A DNA stretch of 64,000 bases from Lentisphaera araneosa HTCC2155 (GTDB lineage Bacteria; Verrucomicrobiota; Lentisphaeria; Lentisphaerales; Lentisphaeraceae). Under the pieces are notes generated by a model. That model was not told the origin of the DNA. It ran no database searches and saw only the letters and a list, made by a program, of their open reading frames with translations. The DNA lies in assembly GCA_945877655.1 (NCBI GenBank), contig CAMCSH010000001.1, positions 1,982-65,981 on the forward strand, in the 5' to 3' direction. The position numbers were made by a program, and so were the translations under genes. Shown piece by piece: positions 569 through 54,949 of the stretch (the stretch's first letter is position 1; each line of letters starts with the position of its first letter).

Positions 569-607
569 GGTTGTAAGGTTGAAAGGTTGAAAGGTTGAAA
601 GGTTGAG
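569..607. repeat. Tandem 8-bp repeat (GGTTGAAA)n, about 5 units, directly upstream of the uvrD start
   Basis: ggttgtaaggttgaaaggttgaaaggttgaaaggttgag read directly. The same unit recurs at 2177-2209, 2325-2351, 31302-31328 and 31396-31421. Confidence 0.95.
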
Positions 608-726
608 CCCAAAACAGCTCGACCCCGAAGCGGGTCTCGGATTTTAGCCCAGGGTTGAGCCGCATCGGCGACACCCTGGGTTTGGGATGAGTTATGATTT
701 TTGACCCTGAAGGGGTCGCGGATGCC
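605..726 (+). repeat. REP-like dispersed palindromic element, copy 1
   Basis: Contains hairpins GACCCCgaagcGGGTC, CCCAGGGTtgagccgcatcggcgacACCCTGGG and GACCCTgaagGGGTC. It aligns by eye along about 100 nt with the reverse complement of 11568-11683. Confidence 0.8.
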
Positions 727-764
727 GCTCCGTTGCTTGTGGGATTTCGATTCAAGCAGAGGGC

Positions 765-857
765 TTATTTATCGTGGCGGCCGCGGGCGACGCCGAAGCC
801 GAAGGCGATGAAGCCGACGATAACGAGAAGGATGACGATGATGAGAATCAGGCGCAT
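765..857 (-). CDS. Possible 30-aa hydrophobic small membrane peptide
   Basis: Reverse strand ATG 855-857 to TAA 765-767: MRLILIIVILLVIVGFIAFGFGVARGRHDK. It has one TM-like segment. There is no homology evidence and it is too short for the ORF track. Confidence 0.25.
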   Translation of the reverse strand: MRLILIIVILLVIVGFIAFGFGVARGRHDK

Positions 858-911
858 GTGAGGGGTCTCCGCCGCCACTCTGCCTTGCCTTGGCGCGAGC
901 GCAAGGTCAAG

Positions 912-999
912 ACAAAAAAGACTTCACCACGAAGACACGAAGTTCACGAAAGAAAGCCAAGAGATTTCCTCTTCGTGCTCTTCGTGTCTTCGTGGTGAA
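912..999 (-). terminator. Intrinsic terminator downstream of bioF, built from tandem-repeat arms
   Basis: Arms 923-952 (ttcaccacgaagacacgaagttcacgaaag) and 969-999 (reverse complement ttcaccacgaagacacgaagagcacgaagagg) give 20 perfect bp plus 6 more. On the minus strand the stem is followed by TTTTTT (plus-strand A-run 914-919). Confidence 0.7.
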
Positions 1000-1005
1000 T
1001 CGTCT

Positions 1006-2160
1006 TCAGCTCTTGAGCTGGGGATGATGCCGAAGAATCGCCGCGGCGAGTTCGCGGATGTCGCGGTCGAGATGCGCCGCGGTGAGGCTGAGGCGGAGGC
1101 GGCAGGAGCCTTCCGGCACGGTGGGCGGGCGGATGGCGGGGCACAGGAAGCCTTCTTCAGCCAGGGCTGCGGCGAGGCGCAGTGTGGCGGCTTCGTCGCC
1201 GCAGGGCACAGGCACGATCGGCGTCGGGTCGTGGCGGATGTCGAGACCGCCGTCGCGCAGGAGGCGTCGCAGTTCGTTGCCGAGGGCGAGGAGGCGATGG
1301 CGAAGAGCTTGACCTTCTTCCGAGCGGACGATGGCGAGGGCGGCGAGCGAGGCGGCCGGGACGGCGGGCGGCAGGGCGGTGGAGTAGATCAAGCCGCGGC
1401 AGGAGTTGACCAGGTAGTCCTTCAGCTCGGCCGACAGGCAGGCGTAGGCGCCAAAGGAGCCGAGGGCCTTGGAATAGGTGCCAAGAAGGAGATCGGCGCC
1501 GAGTCCATGCGCCGGGCCGGAGCCCTCGGGTCCGCAAATGCCGGCGCCGTGGGCGTCGTCGAGGTAGAGGAAGGCGCCGTAGGAGCGGCACAGCTCGGCG
1601 AGGCGAAGGAGATCGGGAAGGTCGCCATCCATCGAGAAGACGCTTTCGGTGACGACGAAGACCATTCCTGTCGACGGCTTTTTCAGCAGCTCTTCGAGGG
1701 CGTCGAGATCGTTGTGCGGGAAGCGCAGAAGTTCCGCGCCGGAGAGCCTGGCGCCGTCGATCAGCGAGGCGTGGGCAAGTCGGTCGGCGAGGATGCGGTC
1801 GTGGCGTCCGGCGAGGGCGGGCAGCAGGGTGATGTTTGCCTGGAAGCCGGAGTTGAGGACGAGGCAGGCCTCGCTGCCTTTCCATGCCGCGGTCTCTTCT
1901 TCGAGTCGGATCAGCAGCGGCGAGCCGCCGCAGATCAGGCGCGACGAGGTGGAGGAGGTGCTTTCCGCAGCGGCGGCAGCGGCGGCGTTGGTGACGGCGG
2001 GATGGCGTTCGAGGCCGAGGTAGGAGTTGGAGCCGAAGTTGACCAGTTCGCGGCCGTCGCGTTGCGCCCGGCGCGAATCGAGGGAGCCCTCATCACGAAG
2101 GCGGCGGAGGCGGCCTTGTTCAGCCCATAACGACAAACGCTGACGGAAACTCTCGTGCAT
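1006..2160 (-). CDS. bioF: 8-amino-7-oxononanoate synthase (PLP-dependent alpha-oxoamine synthase)
   Basis: ORF 1006..2220. It contains NFGSNSYLGL, DDAHG and the PLP-lysine motif TYSKALGSFGAY. The start was moved to ATG 2160 (MHESFRQRL...) because the first 20 codons of the called ORF translate the GGTTGAAA repeat. Confidence 0.85.
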   Translation of the reverse strand: MHESFRQRLSLWAEQGRLRRLRDEGSLDSRRAQRDGRELVNFGSNSYLGLERHPAVTNAAAAAAAESTSSTSSRLICGGSPLLIRLEEETAAWKGSEACLVLNSGFQANITLLPALAGRHDRILADRLAHASLIDGARLSGAELLRFPHNDLDALEELLKKPSTGMVFVVTESVFSMDGDLPDLLRLAELCRSYGAFLYLDDAHGAGICGPEGSGPAHGLGADLLLGTYSKALGSFGAYACLSAELKDYLVNSCRGLIYSTALPPAVPAASLAALAIVRSEEGQALRHRLLALGNELRRLLRDGGLDIRHDPTPIVPVPCGDEAATLRLAAALAEEGFLCPAIRPPTVPEGSCRLRLSLTAAHLDRDIRELAAAILRHHPQLKS

Positions 2161-2176
2161 AAACCTAAAAACCGCA

Positions 2177-2351
2177 GTTGAAAGGTTGAAAGGTTGGAAG
2201 GTTGGAAGGCGGAACAACAAAAACTAGCGTCAGGACATCAGGATGAGAGTGGTTGGGCAGACACGACAGCCACTTCGATCGCATGGTCTTGACTCTTCTT
2301 TGTTTGTTCTTGGTTTTCATGTTCACCTTTCAACTTTTCAACCTTTCAACC
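2177..2351. repeat. Inverted pair of (GGTTGAAA/GGTTGGAA)n runs flanking about 115 bp
   Basis: Left arm 2177-2209 is gttgaaaggttgaaaggttggaaggttggaagg. Right arm 2325-2351 is cacctttcaacttttcaacctttcaac, its near reverse complement. Confidence 0.9.
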
Positions 2352-2430
2352 CGGTTCCATTCTGGTGCTGGAGAAACCCCTCTTGAATCGGCGGCAATCT
2401 ACTGCGCCAAGGAGGGAATCCCACGACAGC

Positions 2431-4283: not shown

Positions 4284-4318
4284 GAGTGGGGCTTTGTGCT
4301 TTAGGGCTAGGGCTTGGT

Positions 4319-4350
4319 CGATATCGCGACATCACGATATCGCGATATCG
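4319..4350. promoter_or_regulatory. Perfect 16-bp palindrome CGATATCGCGATATCG plus an upstream half-site; candidate operator
   Basis: The palindrome lies at 4335-4350. A direct copy of cgatatcgcga lies at 4319-4329. The site is 36-67 nt upstream of the hemY start (4283, minus strand). Confidence 0.4.
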
Positions 4351-4367
4351 GGCAAGCCGCGCATTGC

Positions 4368-5563: not shown

Positions 5564-5596
5564 ATTCTCGTTTCAAAAAAACTTTGCCCAGGTCCC

Positions 5597-5673
5597 TAGT
5601 TCTTCCCTAGTTCTTCCCTGGTTCTTCCCTAGTTCTTCCCTAGTTCTTCCCTAGTTCTTCCCTAGTTGTCTCC
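5597..5673. repeat. Tandem 11-bp repeat (TAGTTCTTCCC) x7
   Basis: tagttcttccc repeated seven times with 3 substitutions. It fills the gap between the hydrolase stop (5678) and the HAD start (5563). Confidence 0.95.
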
Positions 5674-5677
5674 CAGT

Positions 5678-6472
5678 TCAAATTCTCCGGCTGAACAAGG
5701 ACGGCACGAAGCCGCGGATCTCGTCGAGTCTGGCGCGCGACAAGTCGTGAATCAGCAGGCCGGGGGCATCCTCGAGCTGCGCTTGGACATCGCCCCAGGG
5801 ATCGATGACGCAGGAGTGTCCGTAGGTGGCGATGCCGGTATCCGGGTGGACACCGCATTGTGCGGCGGCCGCAACGAAACACTGGTTTTCCACGGCGCGG
5901 GCCCGCAGCAGCAGGTCCCAATGGGCCCGGCCGGTTTTGCGGGTGAAGGCTGCCGTGTTGAGGATGCAATCGGCGCCGGCGTAGCGGCGCCAGAGCTCGG
6001 GGAAGCGCAGGTCGTAGCAGATGGTGAGGCCGAAGCTCCAGCCGCCGAGGTGCAGCAGCAGGGGCGAGCCGTCGCCGAAGGCATAGGTCGCGGTTTCATC
6101 GACCTGTTTTTCGCCGGCGAAGAGCTGGAAGAGGTGGGTCTTGCGGTAGATGCCGAGGCTGGCGCCGTTCTTGTCGAAGCACAGCGAGCTGTTGTAAACC
6201 TTGCCGTCGCGCAGTTCCGGCACGCCGCCCCAGACCGCTGGCAACTTGTGCTCTTTCGACAAGGCGCCGAGCAGCTGATTCCATTCCGCCGCCGAGCGCG
6301 CCGCCGGGGCAATGCCCTCCGGCTTCGCCTGGCAGAGGATGCATTCCGGCAGGACCAGCAGCTGAGCGCCGCGCGCCGCAGCTTCGCCCATCTGGAGCCT
6401 GGCCCAATCGAGATTGTCCTGAACCTGGTCGCCCGAGCAGGACTGCGCCAGAGCGAGACGGAAGCTGTTCAT
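5678..6472 (-). CDS. Carbon-nitrogen hydrolase (nitrilase superfamily, omega-amidase/YafV-like)
   Basis: Catalytic E-K-C context: LLVLPE, YRKTHLF, ICYDLRFPE. Start chosen at ATG 6472 (MNSFRLALAQ). Confidence 0.8.
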   Translation of the reverse strand: MNSFRLALAQSCSGDQVQDNLDWARLQMGEAAARGAQLLVLPECILCQAKPEGIAPAARSAAEWNQLLGALSKEHKLPAVWGGVPELRDGKVYNSSLCFDKNGASLGIYRKTHLFQLFAGEKQVDETATYAFGDGSPLLLHLGGWSFGLTICYDLRFPELWRRYAGADCILNTAAFTRKTGRAHWDLLLRARAVENQCFVAAAAQCGVHPDTGIATYGHSCVIDPWGDVQAQLEDAPGLLIHDLSRARLDEIRGFVPSLFSRRI

Positions 6473-6987: not shown

Positions 6988-9186
<2,199 letters not shown>

Positions 9187-10735: not shown

Positions 10736-11605
10736 ATGAAGATCCTCCACTTTTCGGACATCCACGAAGGTGATTGGCCCCGGTTCCTCGGGGCCTTTTT
10801 TGACAAGCGGTGGATCGGCGCCTTCAATTACATGCTGCGCCGCCGCAGCCACCACCATTGGTCTTACCTCGATCGCGCCCTCGAGATCTGCCGCCAGGAA
10901 AAACCCGACCTCGTCCTCTGCACCGGCGACCTCACCTCCTGCTCCGACCCGCACGAATTCGCCAAGGCCCGGCAACGCCTCGCCCCCTTCGTCAATAGCC
11001 CCGATTTCGACTTCCTCTGCATCCCCGGCAACCACGACCGCTACACCTCGCTCCCCGCCGCCCAAAAAGCCTGCGACGACTTCCTCCTCTGGGCCAACAA
11101 AGGCCGCCTCCAAGCCGGCCCGACACCCCAGAAAATCGACTTCCCCGGACTACGCCTCATCCTCCTCGACGTCTGCCGTCCCTCGTGGCTCAATTCCGCC
11201 GGACGATTAAGCCCCGAAAACGCCGCTCTGGCACTTGATCTCGCCCGCCAGGGACGTGAACTCGGCCTCGCCCCCGTCAGTGCCCAGCACTACCCTTTAC
11301 GCAACGCCCTCGGCCAGCCCCTAGCCCCCCGCCGCGCCCTCCACGGCGCCGAAGCCCTCGCCGCTGGACTCGACTCCGGACTCCTCCTTGCCAGCCTCTG
11401 CGGACACGTCCACCATCCCTTCTTCCGCACCGAAAGCTCCGGCTCCCACGAAATCTGCGCCGGCTCACTCACACAATTCGGCCAGCTCGCCCGCATCGAA
11501 ATCGATCAGGGCCTCCTCCGTCACTCCTGGATCGACGCGACTCATAACCTAAAAACCGCAGCAGCCCAGGACCTTCCGAGACCCCTTCAGGGTCATAAAT
11601 CATAA
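10736..11605 (+). CDS. Metallophosphoesterase (calcineurin-like)
   Basis: Motifs HFSDIHEG, CTGDLTS, IPGNHD and GHVHH. The last ~9 codons and the stop lie inside REP-like copy 2. Confidence 0.75.
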   Translation: MKILHFSDIHEGDWPRFLGAFFDKRWIGAFNYMLRRRSHHHWSYLDRALEICRQEKPDLVLCTGDLTSCSDPHEFAKARQRLAPFVNSPDFDFLCIPGNHDRYTSLPAAQKACDDFLLWANKGRLQAGPTPQKIDFPGLRLILLDVCRPSWLNSAGRLSPENAALALDLARQGRELGLAPVSAQHYPLRNALGQPLAPRRALHGAEALAAGLDSGLLLASLCGHVHHPFFRTESSGSHEICAGSLTQFGQLARIEIDQGLLRHSWIDATHNLKTAAAQDLPRPLQGHKS

Positions 11606-11683
11606 CTCATTCCAACCCAGGGTGTCGCTTAACCCTGGGCTAAAATCTGAAACCCCTTTGGGGTCAAGCTGCAGTGGAGCTCA
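11568..11683 (-). repeat. REP-like dispersed palindromic element, copy 2 (inverted relative to copy 1)
   Basis: Its reverse complement aligns with 605-726 (gaccccaaaggggtttcagattttagcccagggttaagcgacaccctgggttggaatgagttatgatttatgaccctgaaggggtc) with a 7-nt indel. Confidence 0.8.
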
Positions 11684-11709
11684 AACAAGTTCGACAGCGG
11701 TTTTCAGGC

Positions 11710-11744
11710 TTAATTCTTAATTCTTAATTCTTAATTCTTAACTG
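11710..11744. repeat. Tandem 7-bp repeat (TTAATTC) x5
   Basis: ttaattcttaattcttaattcttaattcttaactg, ending 14 nt upstream of the redoxin start. Confidence 0.95.
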
Positions 11745-12340: not shown

Positions 12341-12347
12341 GTGCAAC

Positions 12348-12488
12348 AGTTTAAAGTTTAAGGTTTAAAGTTTAAAGTTGGGGCAGCAGTGATGAAATCC
12401 CTTGAATATGACTCACCAGAATCTGCATGCAATGGCCTTCGTTTCGTTCAACCTTAAACTTTAAACCTTAAACTTTAAACTTTAAACT
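12348..12488. repeat. Inverted pair of (GTTTAARG)n runs, a potential long hairpin
   Basis: Left arm 12348-12379 is agtttaaagtttaaggtttaaagtttaaagtt. Right arm 12450-12488 is aaccttaaactttaaaccttaaactttaaactttaaact. Confidence 0.9.
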
Positions 12489-12499
12489 GAGTCCTTCCC

Positions 12500-23865: not shown

Positions 23866-24795
23866 ATGGGAATCACCATCCACGACCTGCTTGAAGCCGG
23901 CGTACACTTCGGTCACCAGACCCGCCGCTGGAACCCCAAGATGAAATCCTACATCTTCGGCAACCGCAACGGCATCCACATTTTCGACCTCGGCAAGACC
24001 ATGGTCGGCCTGAATAACGCCTGCAAATTCCTCTACGAGAAAGTCGCCAAAGGCGGCGATGTCCTCTGGGTCGGCACCAAGCGCCAGGCTCAAGAGCTCG
24101 TCAAAGACGCCGCCGAGCGCTCTGGCCAGCACGCCATCACTCAGCGCTGGATGGGCGGCACGCTCACCAACATTGAAACCATCCGCAAGAGCGTTGCCAA
24201 GCTCAGCAAATTCCGCAAATGGGAAGAAGACGGCACCCTCGCCGCGATGAAGAAGAAAGAAGCCGGCCGCATCCGTCGTGAAGCAGTCAAACTCGAATCT
24301 TCGATCTCCGGCATCATGGGCATGGGTCGCATCCCCTCCTGCATCGTCGTCATCGACACCGTCAAGGAACACCTCGCGATCAAGGAAGCCAACGCTCTCG
24401 GCATCCCGGTCATCGCCATCCTCGACACCAACTCCGACCCCGACCTGGTCCAATACGGCGTCCCCGGCAACGATGACGCTGTCCGTTCGCTCCAAGTTCT
24501 GATCGGCCAGCTGTCCGAAGCCTGCTACATGGGCAAGGGCATCTCCGATAAGCACAACGAAGAACGCAAAGCCACCCGCGCAAAAGACGACGGCGAGCGC
24601 AAAGCTCGCAGCGACAAGAGCGAGCAAGCTCCCCGTGGCGAACGCCGTGAACGCGCTCCCGCTGGCGACCGTGCTCCCCGCGCTCCCGCCGGTGACCGTG
24701 CTCCCCGCGCCCCCGCCGGTGACCGCGCTCCCCGCGCCCCCGCTGGTGACCGTGCTCCCCGCGCCGCCAAGACTGGCGAAGCCAAAGCCGAGTAA
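23866..24795 (+). CDS. rpsB: 30S ribosomal protein S2 with a repetitive C-terminal extension
   Basis: LLEAGVHFGHQTRRWNPKM... is the S2 core. The C-terminus carries four copies of APAGDRAPR, encoded by 27-bp DNA repeats (about 24655-24765). Confidence 0.9.
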   Translation: MGITIHDLLEAGVHFGHQTRRWNPKMKSYIFGNRNGIHIFDLGKTMVGLNNACKFLYEKVAKGGDVLWVGTKRQAQELVKDAAERSGQHAITQRWMGGTLTNIETIRKSVAKLSKFRKWEEDGTLAAMKKKEAGRIRREAVKLESSISGIMGMGRIPSCIVVIDTVKEHLAIKEANALGIPVIAILDTNSDPDLVQYGVPGNDDAVRSLQVLIGQLSEACYMGKGISDKHNEERKATRAKDDGERKARSDKSEQAPRGERRERAPAGDRAPRAPAGDRAPRAPAGDRAPRAPAGDRAPRAAKTGEAKAE

Positions 24796-31289: not shown

Positions 31290-31301
31290 GAGAGCGGCCA
31301 A

Positions 31302-31421
31302 GTTGAAAGGTTGAAAAGTTGAAAGGTTTGTAGCGAAATCTGAGTCGCTGGGTCTTAGGTCACTGCGTCCGGTTGCTCAGTTGCCCGGTTGCTCGCCTTT
31401 CAACCTTTCAACCTTTCAACC
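31302..31421. repeat. Inverted pair of (GGTTGAAA)n runs
   Basis: Left arm 31302-31328 is gttgaaaggttgaaaagttgaaaggtt. Right arm 31396-31421 is cctttcaacctttcaacctttcaacc. Confidence 0.9.
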
Positions 31422-31428
31422 TCGCTCT

Positions 31429-32706
31429 TCAGTCAAACAGCGTGTTCATCGCCGGGGTGTCCCAGCCTTCGGCGGCTTCGGAGTAGACCTCGAACTTGTC
31501 GCGGCAGGCTTGGCGGGCCCAGGCGGCGAAGTCCATCATGCCGCCCATGTCCCAGTGGGCGACGCCCATCGGGTTCTTCTTGTCGACATGGCTGGGATGG
31601 TAGCAAATGCCGGGGCTGACGTTGCGGAAGATCAGGCCGCCGACGCCGGGGATTTCGACCAGTTTGCGGATCAGGTTCTTCAGCTTCTTTTCGACCGGCG
31701 AAGTCATCCAGCAGGGTTCAGGGGCGACCAGCTCGGCGGCGAAGGCCTGGGGCGAGGGGCAGCGCTTGCAGGTGTCTTCCCAGAGGAAGTCCATGATGTC
31801 AACCAAGAGGAAACGCGGCTTGCCGTCGGTGCGCGGCGCAGCAAAGGCTTTTTTGACCTTGTCCCATTCGAGATCGTGGCCGTTGCGGGCGATTTGTGCC
31901 TTGACCACTTCGTGTTCCGGCGGGGTGCTGCGGACGCCGGCTTTGTCCCAGGCGAGGTGCCAGGTGTAGCGGAAGGGGCGGCCTTCGGGAACGAAGTCTT
32001 CGCAGCAGGCGAGAGGTTCGCGGAGGACTTCCAGCCCGGCCTGGGTGAGGGTGACCTTGTAGGAGCCATGTTCGGGGTGATAGCCCATGTTCTGTTCCCA
32101 ACGGAAGACGTCGGAGCCGGTGCCGACTTCGAGTCGGACGCCGCTCTTGCGCTTGAAGACGAGGGACAAGGGGGGACGGTGCCAGTGGCCGAGCATGATG
32201 TCCTTGCCATCCCATTTCGGCAACTGGCGCTCGTAGGGCTTGCCGCCGTCGACCAAATGTTGGGCGGCCGGGACGACAAACATCGACTCCCATTTGCCGG
32301 GGAGGAGGAAGCTGCCGACCGAGAAGTGGCGGGAGATGGTTTCGCCATTGGCGACGAAGTCGCTGGTGAAGCGGGCGCGGCCAGCCGAGAAGCGGATCGC
32401 CTGGGTCAGATTGGGTTCACGACCGAAGGGCATCCAGCCTTCGGTTTCGACGCAACTCATGCCGGCCTTGTGGTATTCCTTCGAGCGGCGGACCAGGCCC
32501 GGCTCGTCACTCATCGCGCCGATGGTCCAATGCATGCCGCGGAGGATTTCGTCGCCTTCGTACTTGATGCTTTTCAATGCCGCCAGGCGCTTCGAATTGA
32601 GCTCTGCGACGAGCTTGCCGTCTTGCTCGGTGACCAGGATCTTGTTGCCTTCTCTCTCGACCATGTGAATCTGCCCTTCTTGATGTGTTTGGCCGGCAAG
32701 ATACAT
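31429..32706 (-). CDS. Hypothetical protein (425 aa, no family recognised)
   Basis: A long ORF with genome-typical codon usage. The opposite-strand ORFs are shadows. The start may be ATG 32664 (MVEREG). Confidence 0.6.
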   Translation of the reverse strand: MYLAGQTHQEGQIHMVEREGNKILVTEQDGKLVAELNSKRLAALKSIKYEGDEILRGMHWTIGAMSDEPGLVRRSKEYHKAGMSCVETEGWMPFGREPNLTQAIRFSAGRARFTSDFVANGETISRHFSVGSFLLPGKWESMFVVPAAQHLVDGGKPYERQLPKWDGKDIMLGHWHRPPLSLVFKRKSGVRLEVGTGSDVFRWEQNMGYHPEHGSYKVTLTQAGLEVLREPLACCEDFVPEGRPFRYTWHLAWDKAGVRSTPPEHEVVKAQIARNGHDLEWDKVKKAFAAPRTDGKPRFLLVDIMDFLWEDTCKRCPSPQAFAAELVAPEPCWMTSPVEKKLKNLIRKLVEIPGVGGLIFRNVSPGICYHPSHVDKKNPMGVAHWDMGGMMDFAAWARQACRDKFEVYSEAAEGWDTPAMNTLFD

Positions 32707-37284: not shown

Positions 37285-37287
37285 GAA

Positions 37288-37323
37288 AAGTTTAAGGTTT
37301 AAAGTTCAAGGTTCAAAGTTGAG
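37288..37323. repeat. Tandem 8-bp repeat (GTTTAAGG/GTTCAAGG), single arm
   Basis: aagtttaaggtttaaagttcaaggttcaaagttgag, starting 4 nt upstream of the birA start codon. Confidence 0.9.
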
Positions 37324-37367: not shown

Positions 37368-37883
37368 TTAGTCCACATCCGGGCGGATGAGCGGCAGTCC
37401 AGCGGGGCCGCCGAGGGTGATGGCGAGGCCGTAGTCGCGCTCGCGGAAGTCGGGCTCGAGAAGATGAACTCCTTTGAGAAAATCGGCACAAGGAGGGACG
37501 CGGGCGATCTCGCCGATTCGGAGTCCGGCTTGAATGACGGCGGCGGCGAAGTCGTAGGGGACATCGACCGGAACCGGGGCGCCGGGACGCTCGAAAACGG
37601 CGTTTGCGGCGGCCGCAGAGGGGAACATCATGATGAAGCTGTCCTTGATGCCGCGGCCGCAGAGATCAATGAGGAAGCTGCCGAAAAGGACCCGCTCGTC
37701 AAGTTGACGGGCGATGGAGACATGGACGAGGTGGATGTTGTCCCGAGTGTCGAACCAGGCTTGGCTGACGGTGCAGCGCTGGAGCGGCAGCAGCCAAGCC
37801 TTGCCGAGAGCTTGTGCTTGATCTTTGCGGCGCTGCTCGGCCTTCTTCTTCTGCTCTTGTTCGCGACTGAGTTTTTTAGCCAT
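37368..37883 (-). CDS. Hypothetical protein, short paralog of the upstream gene
   Basis: 171 aa. The first 20 residues (MAKKLSREQEQKKKAEQRRK) are identical to those of ORF 37896..39038. The remaining ~150 aa align with that protein at moderate identity. Confidence 0.65.
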   Translation of the reverse strand: MAKKLSREQEQKKKAEQRRKDQAQALGKAWLLPLQRCTVSQAWFDTRDNIHLVHVSIARQLDERVLFGSFLIDLCGRGIKDSFIMMFPSAAAANAVFERPGAPVPVDVPYDFAAAVIQAGLRIGEIARVPPCADFLKGVHLLEPDFRERDYGLAITLGGPAGLPLIRPDVD

Positions 37884-37895
37884 GGGTTTTCTCGA

Positions 37896-39038
37896 TTACT
37901 TGCGGGCGTAGCGGCGGTTGTATTCAGCGACGATTTTATCCATGGCCTTCCGATCCCTCATGTCGATGCCGGCTTCTTTGGCCATGCGGACGAGCATTTC
38001 GCCGGGGCTAATGCGTCCGACTTCAGCGTCGCGCACGGATTTTTGGAAGCTCGACTGGATGGTGGGCGACAATCCGTCCACCATCTCGGCCTCTTCTTTG
38101 AGGAAGTCGATGTGCGCTGCCGTGTCGCGGCCATACGAGGCATGAAGCCATTCGAAGAAGGCAATCATCTCTTGAAAGACCAGAATTTTATGGGAGGCTG
38201 AGAATTCCTCCTCGAAGAAAATCAGGCCGCTGAGGTCTTCGAGGCTCTCAACTTCGAGAAGGTCAGGGGTGATGCGCATTTCGCAAAGACAGAGATCGAC
38301 AAAAAAGCCGAAGGCTTCACGTTGGTGGGTCTTCCAGTCCTTGCCCCGGATCTTGGCGAAGTGTGCGGTCAAGCTTTGGACATAGTTATCGACGAAATCC
38401 ACTTCAACCGGCCCGAGAAGCTTCTCGTCCCAGGCAAAATCCGGATGGCTGGCGGGTGGCAGGATCAGATCGCCGTCGTCCTCATCCTCATCATCATCCT
38501 CGTACTCATCATCATCCATGAGGTTCATATCGCCGATGATCATCGGACGGCCATCGGCTCCGCCGGTCTTGATCTCGATGCCGAAATTCTTCTGCATGAA
38601 GTCGGGCGGCAGCATCTTGGACGCCTGGCGGAAATCGGGATCGGGGGGAATGCCGAGGCTGTTAGCGACGCGCATGCCCGCTTGAATGATGGCGCAGGCG
38701 AGGTCAATCTCGATGTCAGCCTGAGCAGGCGCATCCGGGTGTTTGGACAAGGCATAAAAGGCGCTCGCCAAACTGGGATACTCTGCGACGAAAGCGTTTT
38801 TGACGCCGCGCCCGGAGAGGTCGACGAGATAACTTCCCATCAAAACCTTGTCGCCCATTTTACGGAAGATGGTGACCACCACCAAAGTGAAGTTGTCACG
38901 CGTGACGAGCCATTCCTTGTTGACCGAGCAGGCGAGGAGTGGCAGGCGCCAGGGTTCATTGCGTCCGGCCACTTCTTCTTTCCGGCGCTGCTCGGCCTTC
39001 TTCTTTTGCTCTTGTTCGCGACTGAGTTTTTTAGCCAT
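37896..39038 (-). CDS. Hypothetical protein: paralogous N-domain, acidic linker and helical C-domain
   Basis: 380 aa. The N-domain is homologous to the 37368..37883 product. It is followed by the linker DDDEYEDDDEDEDDGD and then a ~190-aa C-terminal domain. Confidence 0.65.
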   Translation of the reverse strand: MAKKLSREQEQKKKAEQRRKEEVAGRNEPWRLPLLACSVNKEWLVTRDNFTLVVVTIFRKMGDKVLMGSYLVDLSGRGVKNAFVAEYPSLASAFYALSKHPDAPAQADIEIDLACAIIQAGMRVANSLGIPPDPDFRQASKMLPPDFMQKNFGIEIKTGGADGRPMIIGDMNLMDDDEYEDDDEDEDDGDLILPPASHPDFAWDEKLLGPVEVDFVDNYVQSLTAHFAKIRGKDWKTHQREAFGFFVDLCLCEMRITPDLLEVESLEDLSGLIFFEEEFSASHKILVFQEMIAFFEWLHASYGRDTAAHIDFLKEEAEMVDGLSPTIQSSFQKSVRDAEVGRISPGEMLVRMAKEAGIDMRDRKAMDKIVAEYNRRYARK

Positions 39039-47677: not shown

Positions 47678-47716
47678 GGGCGCCCGTTAATGGTTGCGGA
47701 ATACGCAGAGCTATGG

Positions 47717-47792
47717 GTCACCACAGAGGCAAAGAGATCACAGAGGCTTTAGCAGTTTTCGTTTCTCTGTGCCCTCTGTGCCTCTGTGGTGA
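47717..47792. repeat. Hairpin with tandem-repeat arms (CACAGAGG units)
   Basis: Left arm gtcaccacagaggcaaagagatcacagaggc. The reverse complement of the right arm is tcaccacagaggcacagagggcacagaga, giving 14 perfect bp plus further pairs. Confidence 0.9.
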
Positions 47793-47802
47793 ACAAGAGC
47801 TC

Positions 47803-49209
47803 TCACTTCATCAAATGGAAGTTCGACATCGAGATCCCCGAGAGGAGGGCGCCGATGATGCCGAGGAAGCCCTGGTCGGTGCCGCAGAGGAAGACGTTGG
47901 GGGCCGTGGTGCGGCCGTCCTTGATCTTGTCGGGCGAGCCGTAGATGGCGCCGTTGACGTGGGAGGTGAACTTCTTGACGGTGAGGGGGCTGAAGGCGTC
48001 TTCGTAGACGATGTGGCCGTCGAGCTTGCTGGCGAGACCGGTGGTCTCCATCTGGGCCCGGATGAAGTCCTTCTTCGCCTGGGCGTATTCGGGCTTGTTG
48101 AGGATCGACCAGGCTTCGTAGTCGGCGAGGCAGGTGAAGCGGATAATGCCTTCGGCCAAAGGCTTGTCGCGGAACTGGAAGTTGTTGGGGATGCAGATGA
48201 CGCCCGAGCTGGGGTCGACGGTGCGGCCGGCGGGACGGCGGTAGTTGAAGCGCTCGCTGCGGCAGTAGAAGGAGATGGTCTCGTCGATGCCGAGATCCTT
48301 GGGCATGGTGTCGAGCACCAGCAGGGTTTCGACGAAGCTCAACATGCCGGGGCGCTGCTTCGGGGTTTCGCCGAGGAGCATCGAGGTCTCGACGACGCCG
48401 GCAGAGCTGAGCACCGCCTTGCCTTCGAGCACTTCGCCGTTGTCGAGCTCGACGCCGGTGGCGACGCCGTCTTTGAGGAGGATGCGCTTGACCCCGGTGC
48501 GCATCTTGACTTCGGCGCCGGCTTCTTTGACGCGGTGCTGGAGGAGGCGGAGGAGATGGCGGACGCCGATCTGGGGACGGCAGAAACCTTCGCTGAAAAC
48601 CGCCTTGAACATGATGCAGAACTGGCTGAAGTCCATGTCGTCTTCGACGGCGCTGCCGTAGTACATCACCGGGCAGAAGATCATGTCGATCAAGGTCGGG
48701 TCGCTGATGAAGCCGGCGACGACTTCGCGCGAGCTCAGGTAGGGCGCGTCGAGGGCGGTGTCTTCGTAGCCTTGGACGTGAGCGACGAGGCGGCGGAAGC
48801 CATCGACTTGGGTCGGAAATTCGCGAGCGACTTCGTCGACCATCATGCCCATGCCGTTGGTCCAGCGGATCTTGCGGCCGGGGAAGTCGATCGAGGAGAA
48901 GCCCTGTTCGACGAGGTCGAGCTCATTGTGATCGATGCGCAGCTGGCGCAGGAGTTTGGAGAGGGGGGCGCCCTTGGTGCCGCGGGGGACGAAGTTGGTC
49001 ATCGCGTGCAGACCGACATCGAAGCGGCGGCCGTCTTTGGAGTAGTGCGAGTTGAGGCCGCCGGGGATGGCGTGGCGCTCGAGGATCACGACTTTTTTGC
49101 CGAAGTGGGCGAGGCGGATGCCTGCTGCCAGACCGGACATGCCGGCGCCGATGATGATGCAGTCGTACATGGGAGGGAACCGGGGATCAAGGGGTTGGAT
49201 GGGTTGCAA
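47803..49209 (-). CDS. NAD(P)/FAD-dependent oxidoreductase (phytoene desaturase/amine oxidase-like)
   Basis: YDCIIIGAGMSGLAAGIRLAHFGKKVVILE is a dinucleotide-binding motif; 468 aa. The start is either the called TTG 49209 or ATG 49170. Confidence 0.7.
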   Translation of the reverse strand: MQPIQPLDPRFPPMYDCIIIGAGMSGLAAGIRLAHFGKKVVILERHAIPGGLNSHYSKDGRRFDVGLHAMTNFVPRGTKGAPLSKLLRQLRIDHNELDLVEQGFSSIDFPGRKIRWTNGMGMMVDEVAREFPTQVDGFRRLVAHVQGYEDTALDAPYLSSREVVAGFISDPTLIDMIFCPVMYYGSAVEDDMDFSQFCIMFKAVFSEGFCRPQIGVRHLLRLLQHRVKEAGAEVKMRTGVKRILLKDGVATGVELDNGEVLEGKAVLSSAGVVETSMLLGETPKQRPGMLSFVETLLVLDTMPKDLGIDETISFYCRSERFNYRRPAGRTVDPSSGVICIPNNFQFRDKPLAEGIIRFTCLADYEAWSILNKPEYAQAKKDFIRAQMETTGLASKLDGHIVYEDAFSPLTVKKFTSHVNGAIYGSPDKIKDGRTTAPNVFLCGTDQGFLGIIGALLSGISMSNFHLMK

Positions 49210-50705: not shown

Positions 50706-53228
50706 ATGCCCGAAGCCGCCGAGGCCCAGGAAACCACCGTGCGCCCCATGCTCAAGAGCCGCGGCCGGCAAGTCGCCGTCTGCCTGGCCAGCGTCTTCAT
50801 CCTCCTGTCGCTGATTTCCTACCGTGTCGAAGATGTCTCCAAGGTCAGCGGTGGCGCCGAAGCCCTGCATCATCTCAACTGGATGGGTAGTTTTGGTGCT
50901 CGCTTCAGCTACTGGATGGTGCTGGCTTTGGGCTTGGCGGCCTGGCCGGCCTGCCTGCTCGTCAGCACCTGTCTTATGCGGCGCGCCTTCGGCCGCCTGC
51001 ATCCCGCCAACTGGCTGTATCTCTCCGGCATCATCCTCAGCATTTCCGGATTGGTGATGATTCTCGGCTGCTTCCCGGATGCTTTCACGGCGCCGTGTCA
51101 GGCGCTGAATTTGAAGGAATGTCCCGGCGGCGCCATCGGCAGTTTTTTCAGCAACCCGGGCAGCGGCATCCTCTATTACTGCCTGAATGACGTCGGCTGC
51201 ATCATTCTCGGCAGCGTCCTGGTCATCTTCGGCCTAGTGACGGTGTGGCTCTATGACTGGCGCAGCAGCTTCAACCAATGGCAGGAAGTGCGCAGCCATC
51301 AGCAGGTTGCGGCGCCGCAAGCGCCGTCGCCGGAAGCCGCACCCGCCGCGCCGGTGTCACGCATCCGCAAGAGCGCCTCCACCGTGATGAGCTGGCTCAA
51401 GGTTGTCCCCGGCAAAAAGATCGAAGGACAGGAAGCTCCCGTCAGCCCCCCTCCGGCAGTGAAGAAAAAGGACTCCTTCGCTCCTGCGATCGCGTCGCGT
51501 CACGACAGCTCGGGTGCGGTTGGCGCGATGGATTCGTCCCAAGCGGTCGGACGTCACGACAGCGGCAGCGCCTTCAATGACGACGCCAGCCGTTTCCTGC
51601 CGCCGCCCGTCCGTGCGCCGGTTGTGGAGGCGCGGAAGCCGCAAATCATCGACGCCAAGCCGCACCACGAAGCTGCTTTCACCCCGCCGCCCTTGCCGTC
51701 GCCGCCTCGCCTGGCACCGCCTCCTCCTCCCGGCAAAGCCCCGTACATCCTGCCGGCCACGAACCTGCTCAGCCGCATCGACGAAAGGAACACCGTCGAT
51801 GAACATGAAGTGCTGCGCAAAAAAGCCATCATCCACGATGTCATGCGCAACTTCAAAATCCCCTGCGAAATGGGCGAGGCGATCGTCGGTCCCCGCGTCA
51901 CCCTGTTCGAAATCCTCCCCGAAAAATCGGTCCGCATCGAATCCATCGGCAGCCTCGAAAAGAACATCTCGATGGAGCTGCAGGCGGTGGCCATCCGCAT
52001 CCTCCTGCCGATTCCCGGTCGCCGCTCGGTCGGCGTCGAAGTGCCCAACGACCAGGCCTCGGCAGTTTGCTTCCGCACCTTGATCGAAAACCGCGAGTTC
52101 CAGGGTAGCAAGGCGATGATGCCGATCGTCCTCGGCAAAGATGTCGCGGGCAAGGCCGAAATCCTCGACCTCGCGAAAGCCCCGCACCTGCTCGTCGCCG
52201 GTGCCACCGGTGCCGGTAAATCGGTCTTCATGAACACCCTGATCATGAGCCTGGTGCTGCGCTTCAGCCCTGATGAACTCGAGCTCATCATGATCGACCC
52301 GAAACAGGTCGAATTCGCCGCCTACCGCGAACTGCCGCACCTCGTCACCCCGGTGATCACCGACCCGAAACACGCCCCCGCCGCCTTGCGTTGGGCCGTC
52401 TTTGAGATGGAACGCCGCTACCAGATCCTCGCCAAGGTCGGGGTCAAAAACCTCGAAGGCTTCAACGGCCGCGTCGTCCGCGCCGGCGAACCGAAGGAAG
52501 ACGACTTCGGCAACCCGATCCCGCCCCGCTTGCCGATGACCGTCATCATCATCGACGAACTGGCCGACCTGATGATGAGCGCCAAGGCCGAAATCGAAGG
52601 CTCGATCGCCCGCATCGCCCAGAAAGCCCGCGCCGTCGGCATCCACCTCGTCATCGCCACCCAGACCCCTCGCAAAGAAGTCCTCACCGGCATCATCAAG
52701 GCCAACTTCCCCACCCGGATCGCCTTCAAGGTGTCGCAGCAAGTCGACTCCCGCGTCATCCTCGACCGCTCCGGCGCCGATGAACTGCTCGGCAAAGGCG
52801 ATATGCTCTATGTTCCCCCCGGCGCTTCGAATCTGACCCGCATCCAGGGCGCCTATGTCCCAGACAGCGACATCGAATCGGTGGTCGCCGCCTGCGCCGC
52901 CCAACGCCAGCCGAGCTTCAAAGACATTCTGAAAGCGGTCGACGTCGATGTCGACGGCGATGCCGGATCCCCTGCCGTCCAGGGCGAATTGGAACTTCCC
53001 GGCGGCGATGATGAAGATGGCTCGCTCCTGAAAAAAGCCATCGACTGCATCCGCCGCGACCGCAAGGCCTCCACATCCTATCTGCAGCGTCGACTGGGCA
53101 TCGGCTACAACCGCGCAGCCGACCTGATGGACGAACTCGAAGAGGCCGGCTATGTGACGCCGAAGACCAGCGCCGGCCAGCGCGACATCAACTGGGAACG
53201 ATTTGAAGACGACAGGAGTCAATCATGA
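50706..53228 (+). CDS. ftsK: DNA translocase FtsK/SpoIIIE
   Basis: N-terminal TM segments, a Pro-rich linker, the motor domain with Walker A LVAGATGAGKS, and a C-terminal gamma-like winged helix (STSYLQRRLGIGYNRAADLMDELE). Confidence 0.9.
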   Translation: MPEAAEAQETTVRPMLKSRGRQVAVCLASVFILLSLISYRVEDVSKVSGGAEALHHLNWMGSFGARFSYWMVLALGLAAWPACLLVSTCLMRRAFGRLHPANWLYLSGIILSISGLVMILGCFPDAFTAPCQALNLKECPGGAIGSFFSNPGSGILYYCLNDVGCIILGSVLVIFGLVTVWLYDWRSSFNQWQEVRSHQQVAAPQAPSPEAAPAAPVSRIRKSASTVMSWLKVVPGKKIEGQEAPVSPPPAVKKKDSFAPAIASRHDSSGAVGAMDSSQAVGRHDSGSAFNDDASRFLPPPVRAPVVEARKPQIIDAKPHHEAAFTPPPLPSPPRLAPPPPPGKAPYILPATNLLSRIDERNTVDEHEVLRKKAIIHDVMRNFKIPCEMGEAIVGPRVTLFEILPEKSVRIESIGSLEKNISMELQAVAIRILLPIPGRRSVGVEVPNDQASAVCFRTLIENREFQGSKAMMPIVLGKDVAGKAEILDLAKAPHLLVAGATGAGKSVFMNTLIMSLVLRFSPDELELIMIDPKQVEFAAYRELPHLVTPVITDPKHAPAALRWAVFEMERRYQILAKVGVKNLEGFNGRVVRAGEPKEDDFGNPIPPRLPMTVIIIDELADLMMSAKAEIEGSIARIAQKARAVGIHLVIATQTPRKEVLTGIIKANFPTRIAFKVSQQVDSRVILDRSGADELLGKGDMLYVPPGASNLTRIQGAYVPDSDIESVVAACAAQRQPSFKDILKAVDVDVDGDAGSPAVQGELELPGGDDEDGSLLKKAIDCIRRDRKASTSYLQRRLGIGYNRAADLMDELEEAGYVTPKTSAGQRDINWERFEDDRSQS

Positions 53229-53983
53229 ACGACGACAACAGCCAAGCCCCCGCACCTCAAACCGAGGCGCCCCGCCTCCTTCTCCGCCGCTCAGACCCCC
53301 AGGCCGAGCCGCTCCGGCCCGCCGCTGCAGGCGAAGCCGATTTCCTGCCGCCCCCCGCGGCCGAGCCCAGCCTCGTCCGCCCGCCAGACGCCGCGCCGGA
53401 AGCCATCCCCGCCGGACTCGACGAAGAATGCGCCGTCAGCGAAACCCACAGCCAGCCCATTCCCAAGCCCCTGCCAGCCCGCAGCCCGATCCATGCCCGC
53501 ACCTTGCCCCAGCTCCTGCAGGAAGCCCGCCAGGAACGCGCCATGACCATTCGCCAGGTCTATGAAAAGACCAAGGTCAGCCTCGTCCACATCGCCGCTT
53601 TGGAACATGGCGAGTACGCCAAACTCCCTCCCGCCGTCTACACCCGTGGATATTTGCGCAAAATTTGTGAAGAATTCGGGGTTGATCCTGACGAAGCTGT
53701 GGCACTGTATGATAAAGAAAGCGGCGAGGGCGATTCTTCGCTCAAGGCTCACCTGAAAAGTGACTCCGCCGCGACACAAGCTTCAAATCCCGGAGGAAAC
53801 ATGCAGAAATACATCACCTACGCCGTCATCGGCGCTCTTGCCGCGGCCATCGTCGTCGGCCTCGTCGTCAAGTTCTCGAATCCCAAGATCGTCGTTCCCG
53901 AGGGCTATCAAGTCCCCTTGGAAGAATTCGGCTCCGGCCCTGCCCCCGCTCTGCCCAGCTTCACTCTTCCGCCCCCCAACTGA
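53225..53983 (+). CDS. RodZ-like HTH/XRE-domain membrane protein
   Basis: MTIRQVYEKTKVSLVHIAALEHGEYAKLPPAVYTRGYLRKICEEFGVD, followed by the TM segment YAVIGALAAAIVVGLVV. Its ATG overlaps the ftsK stop (ATGA). Confidence 0.7.
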   Translation: MNDDNSQAPAPQTEAPRLLLRRSDPQAEPLRPAAAGEADFLPPPAAEPSLVRPPDAAPEAIPAGLDEECAVSETHSQPIPKPLPARSPIHARTLPQLLQEARQERAMTIRQVYEKTKVSLVHIAALEHGEYAKLPPAVYTRGYLRKICEEFGVDPDEAVALYDKESGEGDSSLKAHLKSDSAATQASNPGGNMQKYITYAVIGALAAAIVVGLVVKFSNPKIVVPEGYQVPLEEFGSGPAPALPSFTLPPPN

Positions 53984-53991
53984 GCTAGCCA

Positions 53992-54118
53992 CAGTTTAAG
54001 TAGTTTAAGCGGTTTAAGCAGTTTAAGGGAACACAAGCCCTTAGCTGCTTAAACTGCTTCTGGCCATTCAACTTCTTAAACTAGTTAAACTAGTTAAACT
54101 ACTTAAACTGCTTAAACT
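53992..54118. repeat. Inverted runs of a 9-bp unit (NAGTTTAAG), a potential long hairpin
   Basis: Left arm cagtttaagtagtttaagcggtttaagcagtttaaggg. Right arms cccttagctgcttaaactgcttc and cttcttaaactagttaaactagttaaactacttaaactgcttaaact. The array ends 3 nt before the cmoA ATG. Confidence 0.9.
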
Positions 54119-54121
54119 CAC

Positions 54122-54820
54122 ATGCCCGACATCCGACGCGATGAACTCTTCCGCTCCGCCGTGACTCCCGGCAGCTTCCGCTTCGATGCCGAAGTTGCCT
54201 CGTCGTTTGACGACATGGCGAGGCGTTCGATTCCCCTCTACCGCGACACCCACGCTGCCTTTTCGGTACTGATCCGCAATGCTCCGGAAGGGGCCGTGCA
54301 TGACCTCGGCTGCTCCACCGGCTCTCTGCTGGTGCAGATTGATCTGGATGCGCCCGAGCGCCGTCTCGTCGGCCATGATCCCTCTCTCGCCATGCTCGAC
54401 ATCGCCGCCGGCCGACTCCCCGGGGCGGAGTGGCGCCACAACGATGCGGAGAACGCAAAACTCGATGGCGCCGCCGTCGTGGTGCTGGGGTGGACCCTGC
54501 AATTCACGCCGCCGGAACGCCGGCTCGAGCTCTTGCGCCGCATCCGCGCCGCTCTGCCACCCGGAGGACTGCTCTTGATCGCCGAAAAGACCGAGCCGGA
54601 AGCGGCTTTTGCCGAGTTCGCCATGGCCGCCCACGATGCCTACCGCCTCGACAACGGCTACACCCCGGAGCAGCTCGTCCACAAACGCGCCGCCCTCGAC
54701 GGCGTTCTGCGTCCCTGGCCCGCAGCTCAGACCGAAGCCGTCCTGCGACAAGCCGAATTCCGTCATTGCCAGGAAATCCTCCGCTGGCATGCCTTCGTCA
54801 CCTGGGTCTGCCTCGCCTGA
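54122..54820 (+). CDS. cmoA: Carboxy-S-adenosyl-L-methionine synthase
   Basis: FRFDAEVASSFDDMARRSIPLYRD...DLGCSTG is the CmoA pattern; 232 aa. Confidence 0.8.
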   Translation: MPDIRRDELFRSAVTPGSFRFDAEVASSFDDMARRSIPLYRDTHAAFSVLIRNAPEGAVHDLGCSTGSLLVQIDLDAPERRLVGHDPSLAMLDIAAGRLPGAEWRHNDAENAKLDGAAVVVLGWTLQFTPPERRLELLRRIRAALPPGGLLLIAEKTEPEAAFAEFAMAAHDAYRLDNGYTPEQLVHKRAALDGVLRPWPAAQTEAVLRQAEFRHCQEILRWHAFVTWVCLA

Positions 54821-54855
54821 ATTTTCCTGGCCTGTATCACTCGGGATTCTCAAAT

Positions 54856-54949
54856 CCAGGCTAGGGAGTGAGGGAACGAGGGAGTTGGGGAGTGAGCTCT
54901 TATGCGCTCCTGCCTTACTCCCTCACTCCCTGCCTCCCTCACTCCCTGG
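54856..54949. repeat. Hairpin with tandem-repeat arms (AGGGAGTG units) between convergent genes
   Basis: Left arm ccaggctagggagtgagggaacgagggagttggggagtgag. Right arm cttactccctcactccctgcctccctcactccctgg. Confidence 0.9.

Follow-up and report, generated by a model that had tools for sequence, protein, structure and literature searches.

What are the short tandem repeats that lie, often as facing inverted pairs, between the genes of a 64,000-nucleotide stretch of DNA from Lentisphaera araneosa HTCC2155 (assembly GCA_945877655.1, contig CAMCSH010000001.1, positions 1,982 to 65,981 of the forward strand; the whole of this stretch is called the window below)? An initial annotation of the window had described them as a family of intergenic stem-loops. 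Each site is either a copy of a small inverted-repeat element, from one of several dispersed families with simple sequence repeat (SSR) arrays as arms, or a solo array built from the same types of unit. Our preferred reading, to which we give a probability of about one half, is that elements resembling REPINs (hairpin-forming doublets of repetitive extragenic palindromic, or REP, sequences) and miniature inverted-repeat transposable elements (MITEs) have colonised transcribed intercistronic spacers, where they would bridge the stop codon of one gene and the start codon of the next in the mRNA and supply a leader that lacks a Shine-Dalgarno (SD) sequence.

Arrays and hairpins in the intergenic spacers

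The gene map of the window was built from the gene calls of the contig, the GC content of third codon positions (GC3) and Pfam, and the starts of tsaD, ylqF, pyrH and the uvrD-like gene agree with conserved N-termini. Intergenic DNA accounts for 11% of the window and is divided among 43 spacers. Tandem Repeats Finder (TRF) recovered every array of the initial annotation to within a few bases. Seventeen arrays fall in these spacers, and 100 dinucleotide-preserving shuffles of them yield a mean of 0.02 (maximum 1), so that the arrays are not random. There are 13 sites with arrays of 7–11-nt units, eight of them long hairpins and five solo arrays, and all are intergenic, as had been claimed. With one exception in coding DNA (51314–51354; 22-nt period, 1.9 copies), arrays with a period not divisible by three are confined to intergenic DNA and are AT-rich (15–48% GC against 62% window-wide); the coding arrays otherwise have periods divisible by three.

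An inverted-repeat scan confirmed the seven paired sites described before, with arms of 26–39 nt that are 82–97% complementary, and an eighth hairpin was found at 4311–4358 (minus strand; z −6.0), which consists of four copies of the self-complementary unit CGATATCG between the stop of a YchJ-like gene and the start of an amine-oxidase gene. Predicted folding at the paired sites is better than that of shuffled controls, as anticipated (z −4.2 to −9.0; 0 of 200 shuffles fold as well). The single runs are another matter. The solo arrays at 569–606, 11709–11741 and 37287–37320 are predicted to be unpaired or nearly so, the 11-mer array at 5593–5679 pairs weakly in the minimum free energy structure and not at all in the centroid, and the array at 25817–25852 pairs in part with the non-repeat segment 25780–25803. 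Describing these runs as stem-loops was thus mistaken, and so was the notion of one stem-loop family: five of the 13 sites are solo, one hairpin (912–1003) is an ordinary terminator, and the AT-rich hairpins with long loops (GGTTGAAA or GTTTAAR) behave as another family than the GC-richer ones with short loops (CACAGAGG, CACGAAGA, AGGGAGTG). The two arms of a site do share unit and period, as the initial annotation held; its companion claim that each site has a unit of its own fails insofar as the units recur in other genomes.

An assembly artefact can be ruled out: the arrays do not reach the length of the assembly k-mer, they are present in three independent assemblies that differ by whole units only, and they recur in many unrelated metagenome-assembled genomes (MAGs) and metagenomes. 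Clustered regularly interspaced short palindromic repeats (CRISPR) were rejected, in agreement with the initial annotation: the 7–11-nt units abut directly without spacers, and no cas domains occur among the precomputed Pfam hits of the called window genes. The arrays are also distinct from a REP-like element at 619–722 and 11545–11665. Rfam returned no match at gathering threshold and, below it, only generic miRNA-precursor-like hits to the hairpins; a search for tRNA and tmRNA genes found none. Retron and riboswitch readings were considered and dismissed.

Position and polarity

Arrays occur in 12 of the 29 co-directional spacers of the window (41%), in one of the five convergent spacers and in none of the nine divergent ones. 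Read in the sense direction, the array nearer the stop is rich in G and purines and begins 0–20 nt downstream of the stop codon of the upstream gene, and the array nearer the start is rich in pyrimidines and poor in G, in most cases free of it, and ends 0–17 nt before the downstream ATG (Spearman rho −0.81 for position against G minus C, p = 4e-5). This polarity is obeyed at 12 of 12 co-directional sites, solo arrays included: the AGAACTAGGGA 11-mer abuts a stop, and CCTTTCAA, CTTAATT, CTTGAAT and GAACTTT abut starts. The initial annotation had placed the sites correctly between genes and overlooked the restriction to co-directional spacers, the G-rich arm after the stop and the G-poor arm abutting the ATG. 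An origin from two divergent genes, each with a G-poor leader, was rejected since paired sites are found in co-directional and convergent spacers and in no divergent one.

Eight G-poor arrays end 2–17 nt before an ATG, those of genes for a UvrD-like helicase, an aminotransferase, a peroxiredoxin, tsaD, pyrH, ylqF, lipB and a methyltransferase, whereas chance would place 3.7 arrays no more than 20 nt from a start (p = 0.017). Only two of these eight genes have an SD-like motif, as against 38 of 59 genes overall. Among the solo arrays, the G-free one at 569–606 (minus strand; sense CCTTTCAA ×4.8, GGTTGAAA on the plus strand) ends 9 nt 5' of the helicase ATG at 559, and the G-poor one at 37287–37320 (minus; sense GAACYTT or AAACYTT ×4.9) ends 2 nt before the lipB ATG at 37284; both genes lack an SD. 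The G-free array at 11709–11741 (plus; CTTAATT ×4.7), upstream of which stands an element of the REP-like, Acido-Lenti-1-like type, ends 17 nt 5' of the peroxiredoxin ATG (11759), and here the SD (AAGGA) is kept. The CTTGAAT ×5.1 array of the site at 25780–25852 (plus; z −4.2) ends 13 nt before the pyrH ATG (25866). At the other end of a gene, the solo purine-rich array at 5593–5679 (minus; sense AGAACTAGGGA ×7.9) abuts the stop codon of a CN-hydrolase gene and has one unit more than the sister contig, an 84-kb metagenome contig from ENA with 99.9% identity to the window.

Three spacers are occupied from end to end by a hairpin, so that stop and start codons sit at the foot of the stem: the 5' arm begins some 6–8 nt after the stop (3 nt in the 30-nt arm of the inverted-repeat scan) and the 3' arm ends 3–12 nt before the ATG. 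At 12347–12490 (plus; 97% complementary, z −6.7) the 5' arm, AGTTTAA ×4.6 at 12348–12379, starts 7 nt after the peroxiredoxin stop, and the 3' arm, AACTTTA ×5.6 at 12450–12488, runs to 11 nt before the tsaD ATG (12500). At 31287–31431 (minus; z −7.9) the 5' arm, GGTTGAAA at 31422–31396, lies about 6 nt after the stop (31429) of a gene for a 411-residue protein, and the 3' arm, CTTTCAAC at 31328–31302, ends 12 nt before the ylqF ATG (31289), with a stem that extends to pair the region of the stop codon with that of the start codon. At 53992–54118 (plus; z −7.8) the units are of 9 nt; the 5' arm, CAGTTTAAG ×4 at 53992–54027, begins 8 nt after the stop of a helix-turn-helix gene, and the 3' arm, CTTAAACTR ×5.4 at 54070–54118, reaches to 3 nt before a methyltransferase ATG (54122) that has no SD. 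The hairpin at 47707–47803 (minus; z −6.5; TRF array 47765–47788) belongs to the CACAGAGG family, and the base of its stem abuts the stop of a gene for a FAD-binding protein (47803), 29 nt before the ATG of a DUF374 gene (47677).

Stems that start 0–20 nt after stop codons, a place that REPs are known to abut (PMC3733652), raise the question of whether the hairpins are terminators, attenuators or REP-like stabilisers of mRNA 3' ends, their nearness to the next start being incidental. One of them is a terminator: the hairpin at 912–1003 (minus strand; −49.8 kcal/mol, z −9.0), with arms of CACGAAGA units at 923–952 and 969–999 (TRF span 969–994) followed by a T-run, is the intrinsic terminator of the aminotransferase gene that has its stop codon at 1006. 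It had rightly been singled out before, the other seven hairpins having no T-run. The hairpin at 54863–54947 (either strand; z −7.0 on plus and −5.7 on minus; TRF array 54913–54947), with AGGGAGTG and CACTCCCT arms, stands between convergent genes, and both convergent transcripts read its purine-rich arm first. With a T-run, or in such a convergent spacer, a hairpin of this type may serve as a terminator or 3'-end structure. As an account of all the sites this is unlikely: canonical terminators exist elsewhere in the window, one of them (2434–2460) belonging to the gene upstream of the hairpin at 2165–2360; loops of 47–120 nt are atypical of terminators; the solo G-free arrays are predicted to be unfolded or nearly so; and a terminator placed between the 411-residue gene and ylqF, which were coupled ancestrally, would switch off an essential gene that has no visible promoter of its own.

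The AT-richness of the arrays in a 62% GC genome and their variable copy number might instead point to signals at the DNA level, that is, sites for nucleoid or regulatory proteins, promoter elements, cruciforms or phase-variation (contingency) loci. In the region 12347–12490, (TTTAAAC)n holds hexamers resembling −35 and −10 boxes at 17-nt spacing; it is the only array that could mimic a promoter, and CCTTTCAA-type units contain no such hexamers. A crude scan, for a group (Planctomycetes, Verrucomicrobia and Chlamydiae, PVC) with poorly known promoters, found no sigma-70-like promoter on the sense strand of any array-bearing spacer, and the promoter idea was rejected. None of the nine divergent promoter regions carries an array, the orientation bias relative to the gene is strong where DNA-binding sites need show none, and the downstream genes are housekeeping genes and not surface or contingency genes. 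Signals of this kind are therefore a very unlikely explanation.

Recurrence and dispersal in other genomes

The window units GGTTGAAA, CACAGAGG, CACGAAGA, GTTTAAA and CTTAATT (as AATTAAG arrays) all recur in other genomes, CACGAAGA for instance in L148 and L161 (numbers with L denote the fetched loci). Each of the two scans of sequence collections was seeded with a single repeat unit, and the numbers of loci are lower bounds; gene starts in the fetched loci rest on open reading frame (ORF) heuristics. Species-representative genomes contain at least 98 loci with (CCTTTCAA)3, in PVC, Bacteroidota, Chloroflexota, Gemmatimonadota and other phyla, and at least ten of the 98 matches listed are from one MAG, GFS_3830, labelled 'Lentisphaeraceae', which also has a dispersed element of about 100 nt in common with the window. 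JGI metagenomes, an independent database, contain at least 120 loci with (CACAGAGG)~3, and the unit is also present in L011 and L046.

The order of the arms recurs with the units. Paired GGTTGAAA...CCTTTCAA hairpins from several phyla have the G-rich arm first in 16 cases and reversed in one among the matches listed. About half of the CACAGAGG arrays listed have an inverted partner within 200 nt, and in the order CACAGAGG...CCTCTGTG the purine arm comes first at about 43 sites against 5 reversed. Scans of viral contigs gave no matches for either arm order and hence no information on order. Where arrays adjoin ORFs beginning with ATG, the G-poor strand is the sense strand in 14 cases against 2 in the window and its relatives, and in 40 against 14 overall among the matches listed (p = 5e-4).

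Both GGTTGAAA and CACAGAGG elements have conserved termini and variable loops. The ends of the latter read ..GCTAAC|CACAGAG...CTCTGTG|GTTAGC.., and many copies lie between a stop codon and the next ATG. In comparisons that included tblastx with a 60-bit cut-off, window 31285–31440 aligned with L069, L078 and L012, the loop of the ylqF hairpin being homologous in the first two, and window 2150–2375 with L068 (82% mean column identity), where the copy occupies a non-orthologous site. Homology with the window elements covers the loops and termini (GGAACCGGG) in these relatives but does not extend to the flanking genes, which shows that the elements are dispersed. In the river MAG that supplied L012, the loop of a GGTTGAAA hairpin (425–561) is filled by a nested array, (GGCGGAA)×10.7. 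A motif, (C)TGCGGTTTT(T/C)AGG, lies directly beside arrays of CCTTTCAA, CTTAATT and TAAAACCCC (window 2161–2176 and 11693–11708; L071 150–166).

Conserved termini, variable loops, homologous copies at non-orthologous sites and many copies per MAG would all be expected of selfish or neutral DNA of the MITE or REPIN kind that has no function for its host, the positional rules then reflecting where and which insertions are tolerated: promoters would be spared, and purine arrays that resemble an SD or a start would be kept away from the ATG. We regard this as quite possible. On the other hand, no recurrent transposase or REP-associated tyrosine transposase (RAYT) was found among 3,924 clustered ORFs from the 218 loci, nor in the window; the genes that do recur near arrays (ABC ATPases, kinases, acyl-CoA ligases, GxxExxY proteins) do so at background levels only. 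There are no clear target-site duplications, and a single mobile master copy could hardly have given rise to so many units and to solo arrays. Moreover, of the eight arrays next to a start, six stand in place of the SD of housekeeping genes (tsaD, ylqF, lipB and the uvrD-like gene among them), so these leaders must support translation. As a separate observation, small proteins of the GxxExxY type (PD-(D/E)XK-like) adjoin arrays in L205, L077, L112, L146 and L176, at about background frequency.

Slippage, the ylqF insertion and an upstream reading frame

In comparison with 99.9%-identical contigs the window has one unit more at 5621 and two more in one arm at 31396, the 5' arm of the ylqF hairpin, so that copy number does differ between related strains, a comparison that the initial annotation had called for.

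The spacer between the 411-residue gene and ylqF is informative on the origin of such elements. The closest named relative of YlqF is that of Lentisphaera profundi (49% identity), and the protein database contains no relative with between 51% and 99% identity, which leaves only distant outgroups, L103 and L106, for a comparison of orthologous spacers. In both, L. profundi and a marine relative, the two genes are syntenic and overlap, by 4 nt (ATGA) and 7 nt respectively, and no arrays are present. The 139-nt hairpin spacer at 31290–31428 is therefore a derived insertion, and the pair was very probably coupled translationally in the ancestor. TGA stands on both sides of the insertion, as a selfish origin would have it, though it is also needed for viability; elsewhere there are no consistent direct repeats, and no insertion sequence was identified.

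Polymorphism between near-identical strains also suits an origin in situ, by which slippage would expand units in tolerant intergenic hairpins and template switching at quasipalindromes would copy them to the other arm, involving neither mobility nor function. Array-rich flanks accompany the array in every genome that has one: the flanks of the (CCTTTCAA)3 matches hold 133 further arrays in 705 kb, of other 5–11-nt units that are mostly strongly asymmetric in G and C, and a second set of array-bearing flanks holds about 100 in 680 kb. One or two substitutions connect the unit families with each other, and both arms of a site have a common period. Set against these points are the homology of loops and termini between non-orthologous sites and between genomes, the recurrence of units and arm order across phyla, and the fact that slippage alone predicts neither purine-then-pyrimidine polarity nor avoidance of divergent spacers. 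We consider such a by-product improbable.

The hairpin at 2165–2360 (minus; z −5.4) is of the long-loop type, with a G-rich 5' arm at 2351–2325 (GGTTGAAA), a loop at 2324–2210 and a G-free 3' arm at 2209–2177 that ends 16 nt before an aminotransferase ATG (2160); its terminus is GGAACCGGG. An upstream ORF (uORF) of 51 codons (2320–2165, minus) begins with an ATG 5 nt after the SD-like 5' arm (GAAAGG), and runs on through the loop and then the 3' arm, in which it meets no stop codon, to terminate 4 nt short of the aminotransferase start. Starts of the form GAAAGG-N5-9-ATG occur in about half of the GGTTGAAA pairs listed, and the uORFs in L022 and L041 end in an ATGA overlap with the main ORF.

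A model for the elements and the evidence against it

Under the preferred reading both arms would be co-transcribed in a polycistronic mRNA and fold into a purine–pyrimidine helix of 26–39 bp, bringing stop and start codons to one stem foot and masking the G-poor leader. The G-poor 3' arm itself would be an unstructured, SD-independent leader for the downstream gene, freed when the ribosome that finishes the upstream cistron opens the stem, a form of coupling by RNA unfolding (PMC12548453). At 2165–2360 the stem might be opened by a ribosome on the uORF that starts at the SD-like 5' arm. Alternatively, RNase III could release the leader by cutting the stem, as in the 5' untranslated region (UTR) of the Haemophilus influenzae hmw transcript (PMC12721329), and slippage in either arm would alter the length of the stem and so tune downstream expression. 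The function (translational coupling, RNase III processing, slippage tuning) is, like the rest of this RNA-level model, inferred from the sequence. A bolder version must be called tentative and rather doubtful, namely that there is a cross-phylum class of strand-symmetric purine-then-pyrimidine hairpins of 7–9-nt repeats, inserted between cistrons, in which a G-free leader replaces the SD, downstream translation depends on the upstream cistron or on RNase III, and the copy number of the arms would be a heritable and rapidly mutable rheostat for the housekeeping operons of free-living PVC bacteria, Bacteroidota and soil bacteria.

Several results weigh against the model. Modelled unmasking by a ribosome on the upstream stop codon raised the accessibility of the start at only two of four sites, from 0.24 to 0.44 and from 0.43 to 0.61 at the ylqF and tsaD sites, with no gain at the methyltransferase and DUF374 sites. 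The compensatory changes between arms that the initial annotation had proposed to look for are not supported at the variable 8th position of CACAGAGN hairpins, where 23 of 48 pairs are Watson–Crick against 28 expected, in keeping with selfish DNA. Arms vary in copy number independently, as drift in such DNA would also produce, and the ylqF hairpin of the sister strain keeps only about 11 bp of one arm. The uORF is reduced to 6–8 codons or absent in the homologous copies of L032 and L068 and missing from loops of type A; it is therefore a trait of a sub-family. The preference for one orientation drops to 26:12 once the lineage is left, and with units other than CCTTTCAA (11:7) it does not reach significance. 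The promoter scan was crude, the PVC promoter consensus being poorly known, and the RNA-level model concerns an uncultured organism and is drawn from its sequence and predicted folding. Finally, selective tolerance alone could explain all of the positional rules. Because of the mixed result on unmasking and the want of covariation, tolerated insertion of selfish DNA is kept as a strong rival.

Comparison with known repeats and hairpins

Since several features of the elements are shared with long simple-sequence repeats (LSSRs), heptamer repeats (PMC4679880), REPIN- or MITE-like hairpins and the hmw hairpin (PMC12721329), the earlier verdict that no described element class fits was too strong. 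LSSRs of 5–11-nt units are described by Mrazek 2007, in the terms in which that work is cited in PMC4679880; like them, the window arrays consist of head-to-tail units of 5–11 nt beyond chance expectation and show the instability of slippage. The TAACTGA repeats of marine Beggiatoaceae are heptamer direct repeats close to start codons, for which SD-independent initiation was proposed (MacGregor 2015, PMC4679880); the short tandemly repeated repetitive (STRR) sequences of cyanobacteria belong with them. Common to these and the window sites are intergenic tandem units of 7–8 nt in 2–8 copies, the rarity of SDs, housekeeping genes downstream and a patchy spread across phyla that includes Bacteroidetes; eight window arrays lie in forward orientation a few nt from a start, two of the eight with an SD-like motif. 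The window sites differ in their units (CCTTTCAA, AACTTTA, CTTAATT, CTTGAAT and others, many per genome), in their stop-side and start-side polarity and conserved element termini, and in that 8 of 13 are inverted pairs or hairpins, whereas the TAACTGA type consists of direct repeats only, a single inverted set having been counted by MacGregor among 170 (PMC4679880).

In H. influenzae the 5'UTR of hmw1A contains an (ATCTTTC)n hairpin that is cut by RNase III (PMC12721329). The window sites resemble it in that a long hairpin ahead of a gene has an arm made of an SSR array, a G-free heptamer arm faces a G-rich partner, and copy number alters the structure. The hmw hairpin, however, is a single locus of a host-adapted pathogen, serves an adhesin gene and has one SSR arm, the 5' arm; the elements described here occupy dozens of sites upstream of housekeeping genes, both of their arms are SSRs, the G-free arm is 3', and RNase III processing is assumed by analogy.

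With REPINs (PMC3116915), REPs of the GTAG/CGTC type (PMC3733652) and MITEs the elements have in common that they are dispersed, high-copy, extragenic inverted repeats of 80–200 nt, often near stop codons, with conserved arms and variable loops; they would likewise be transcribed within operons. They form inverted-doublet hairpins in many dispersed extragenic copies, as REPINs do, and have terminal inverted repeats within 50–500 bp and homologous copies at unrelated sites, as MITEs do. Unlike REPs, their arms are tandem arrays and not imperfect palindromes with a GTAG or CGTC tag, their termini are GGAACCGGG or, in the CACAGAGG family, GCTAAC/GTGAAC, the purine arm comes first, the SD is replaced, and no RAYT or transposase accompanies them in the window or the 218 loci. 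Correia and ERIC (enterobacterial repetitive intergenic consensus) elements are further examples of intergenic hairpin repeats. Mycobacterial interspersed repetitive units (MIRUs; Supply et al. 1997) are reportedly intercistronic tandem repeats with small ORFs, and these maintain coupling because their ends overlap the stop codon on one side and the start codon on the other. The uORF at 2320–2165 and the ATGA-overlapping uORFs of L022 and L041 recall this arrangement; MIRU units differ in being of 40–100 bp, direct only and devoid of hairpins, and the uORF is confined here to a sub-family. The omega leader of tobacco mosaic virus (TMV), with 8-nt direct repeats, and the epsilon sequence of T7 gene 10, UUAACUUUA, are G-free, A/C/U-rich, unstructured and SD-independent enhancers, made up in part of short direct repeats, found in single viral leaders and experimentally shown; AACUUUA arrays come close to containing the T7 epsilon sequence.

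No match to the exact unit strings turned up in a literature search. Three features were not found described in the literature searched and appear undescribed: SSR arrays in both arms; a strict, strand-symmetric purine-first polarity; and restriction to co-directional spacers combined with SD replacement and unit families that cross phyla.

Other features of the window

The REP-like element at 619–722 (minus) and 11545–11665 (plus) is a composite of about 105 nt and three hairpins, both copies having the same orientation with respect to the gene downstream. After either copy come a solo G-poor array and then an ATG. The composite is also present in GFS_3830 (L022, L071, L101). Its segment 11616–11665 is a full-length match, below threshold, to the Acido-Lenti-1 RNA motif of Rfam (22.9 bits against a gathering score of 37), a hint that the Rfam motif may itself be a dispersed repeat. 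A hydrophobic small ORF of 29 codons, MRLILIIVILLVIVGFIAFGFGVARGRHDK (770–858, minus), is situated between the REP-like element and the terminator hairpin.

The katG gene (6988–9186) has an in-frame TAG at 7147–7149 (..HFE*AHEF..), where the 99.9%-identical sister contig L001 is intact (..HFDYAHEF..); it is a strain-level pseudogene or a sequencing variant. Two small ORFs of 62 and 165 residues at 60207–60893 are remnants of one gene that is continuous in L012 (2051–3307), with about 570 nt missing in the window; window 60239–60880 has 78–83% DNA identity with a river MAG labelled Verrucomicrobiota. In-frame coding repeats of 12 nt at the 3' end of ylqF (30331–30360) and of 15 nt at 58343–58393 each differ by one unit between strains. 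A 27-nt repeat (×4.2) is found near the 3' end of rpsB (24652–24765), and a 96-nt duplication inside an EF-hand gene (2520–2697). The adjacent hypothetical genes 37368–37883 (171 residues) and 37896–39038 (380 residues), whose products both begin MAKKLSRE, are probably tandem paralogues.

Significance

Arrays affect 41% of the co-directional spacers of the window, and at that rate a genome would carry hundreds of sites. Should the elements prove merely selfish, their polarity and spacer rules would show cleanly how selection filters mobile DNA, and the GGTTGAAA and CACAGAGG families would serve as markers for annotation, strain typing and quality control of assemblies in poorly studied phyla. 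If the RNA-level reading is true, a large fraction of the operons of these lineages would link cistrons and start translation without an SD by an unrecognised route in which slippage is a tuning knob, and the role of heptamer and octamer repeats (STRR, TAACTGA, LSSR) could be examined with simple bicistronic reporters. Expression variation based on SSRs would then extend from the contingency genes of pathogens to the housekeeping genes of environmental bacteria.

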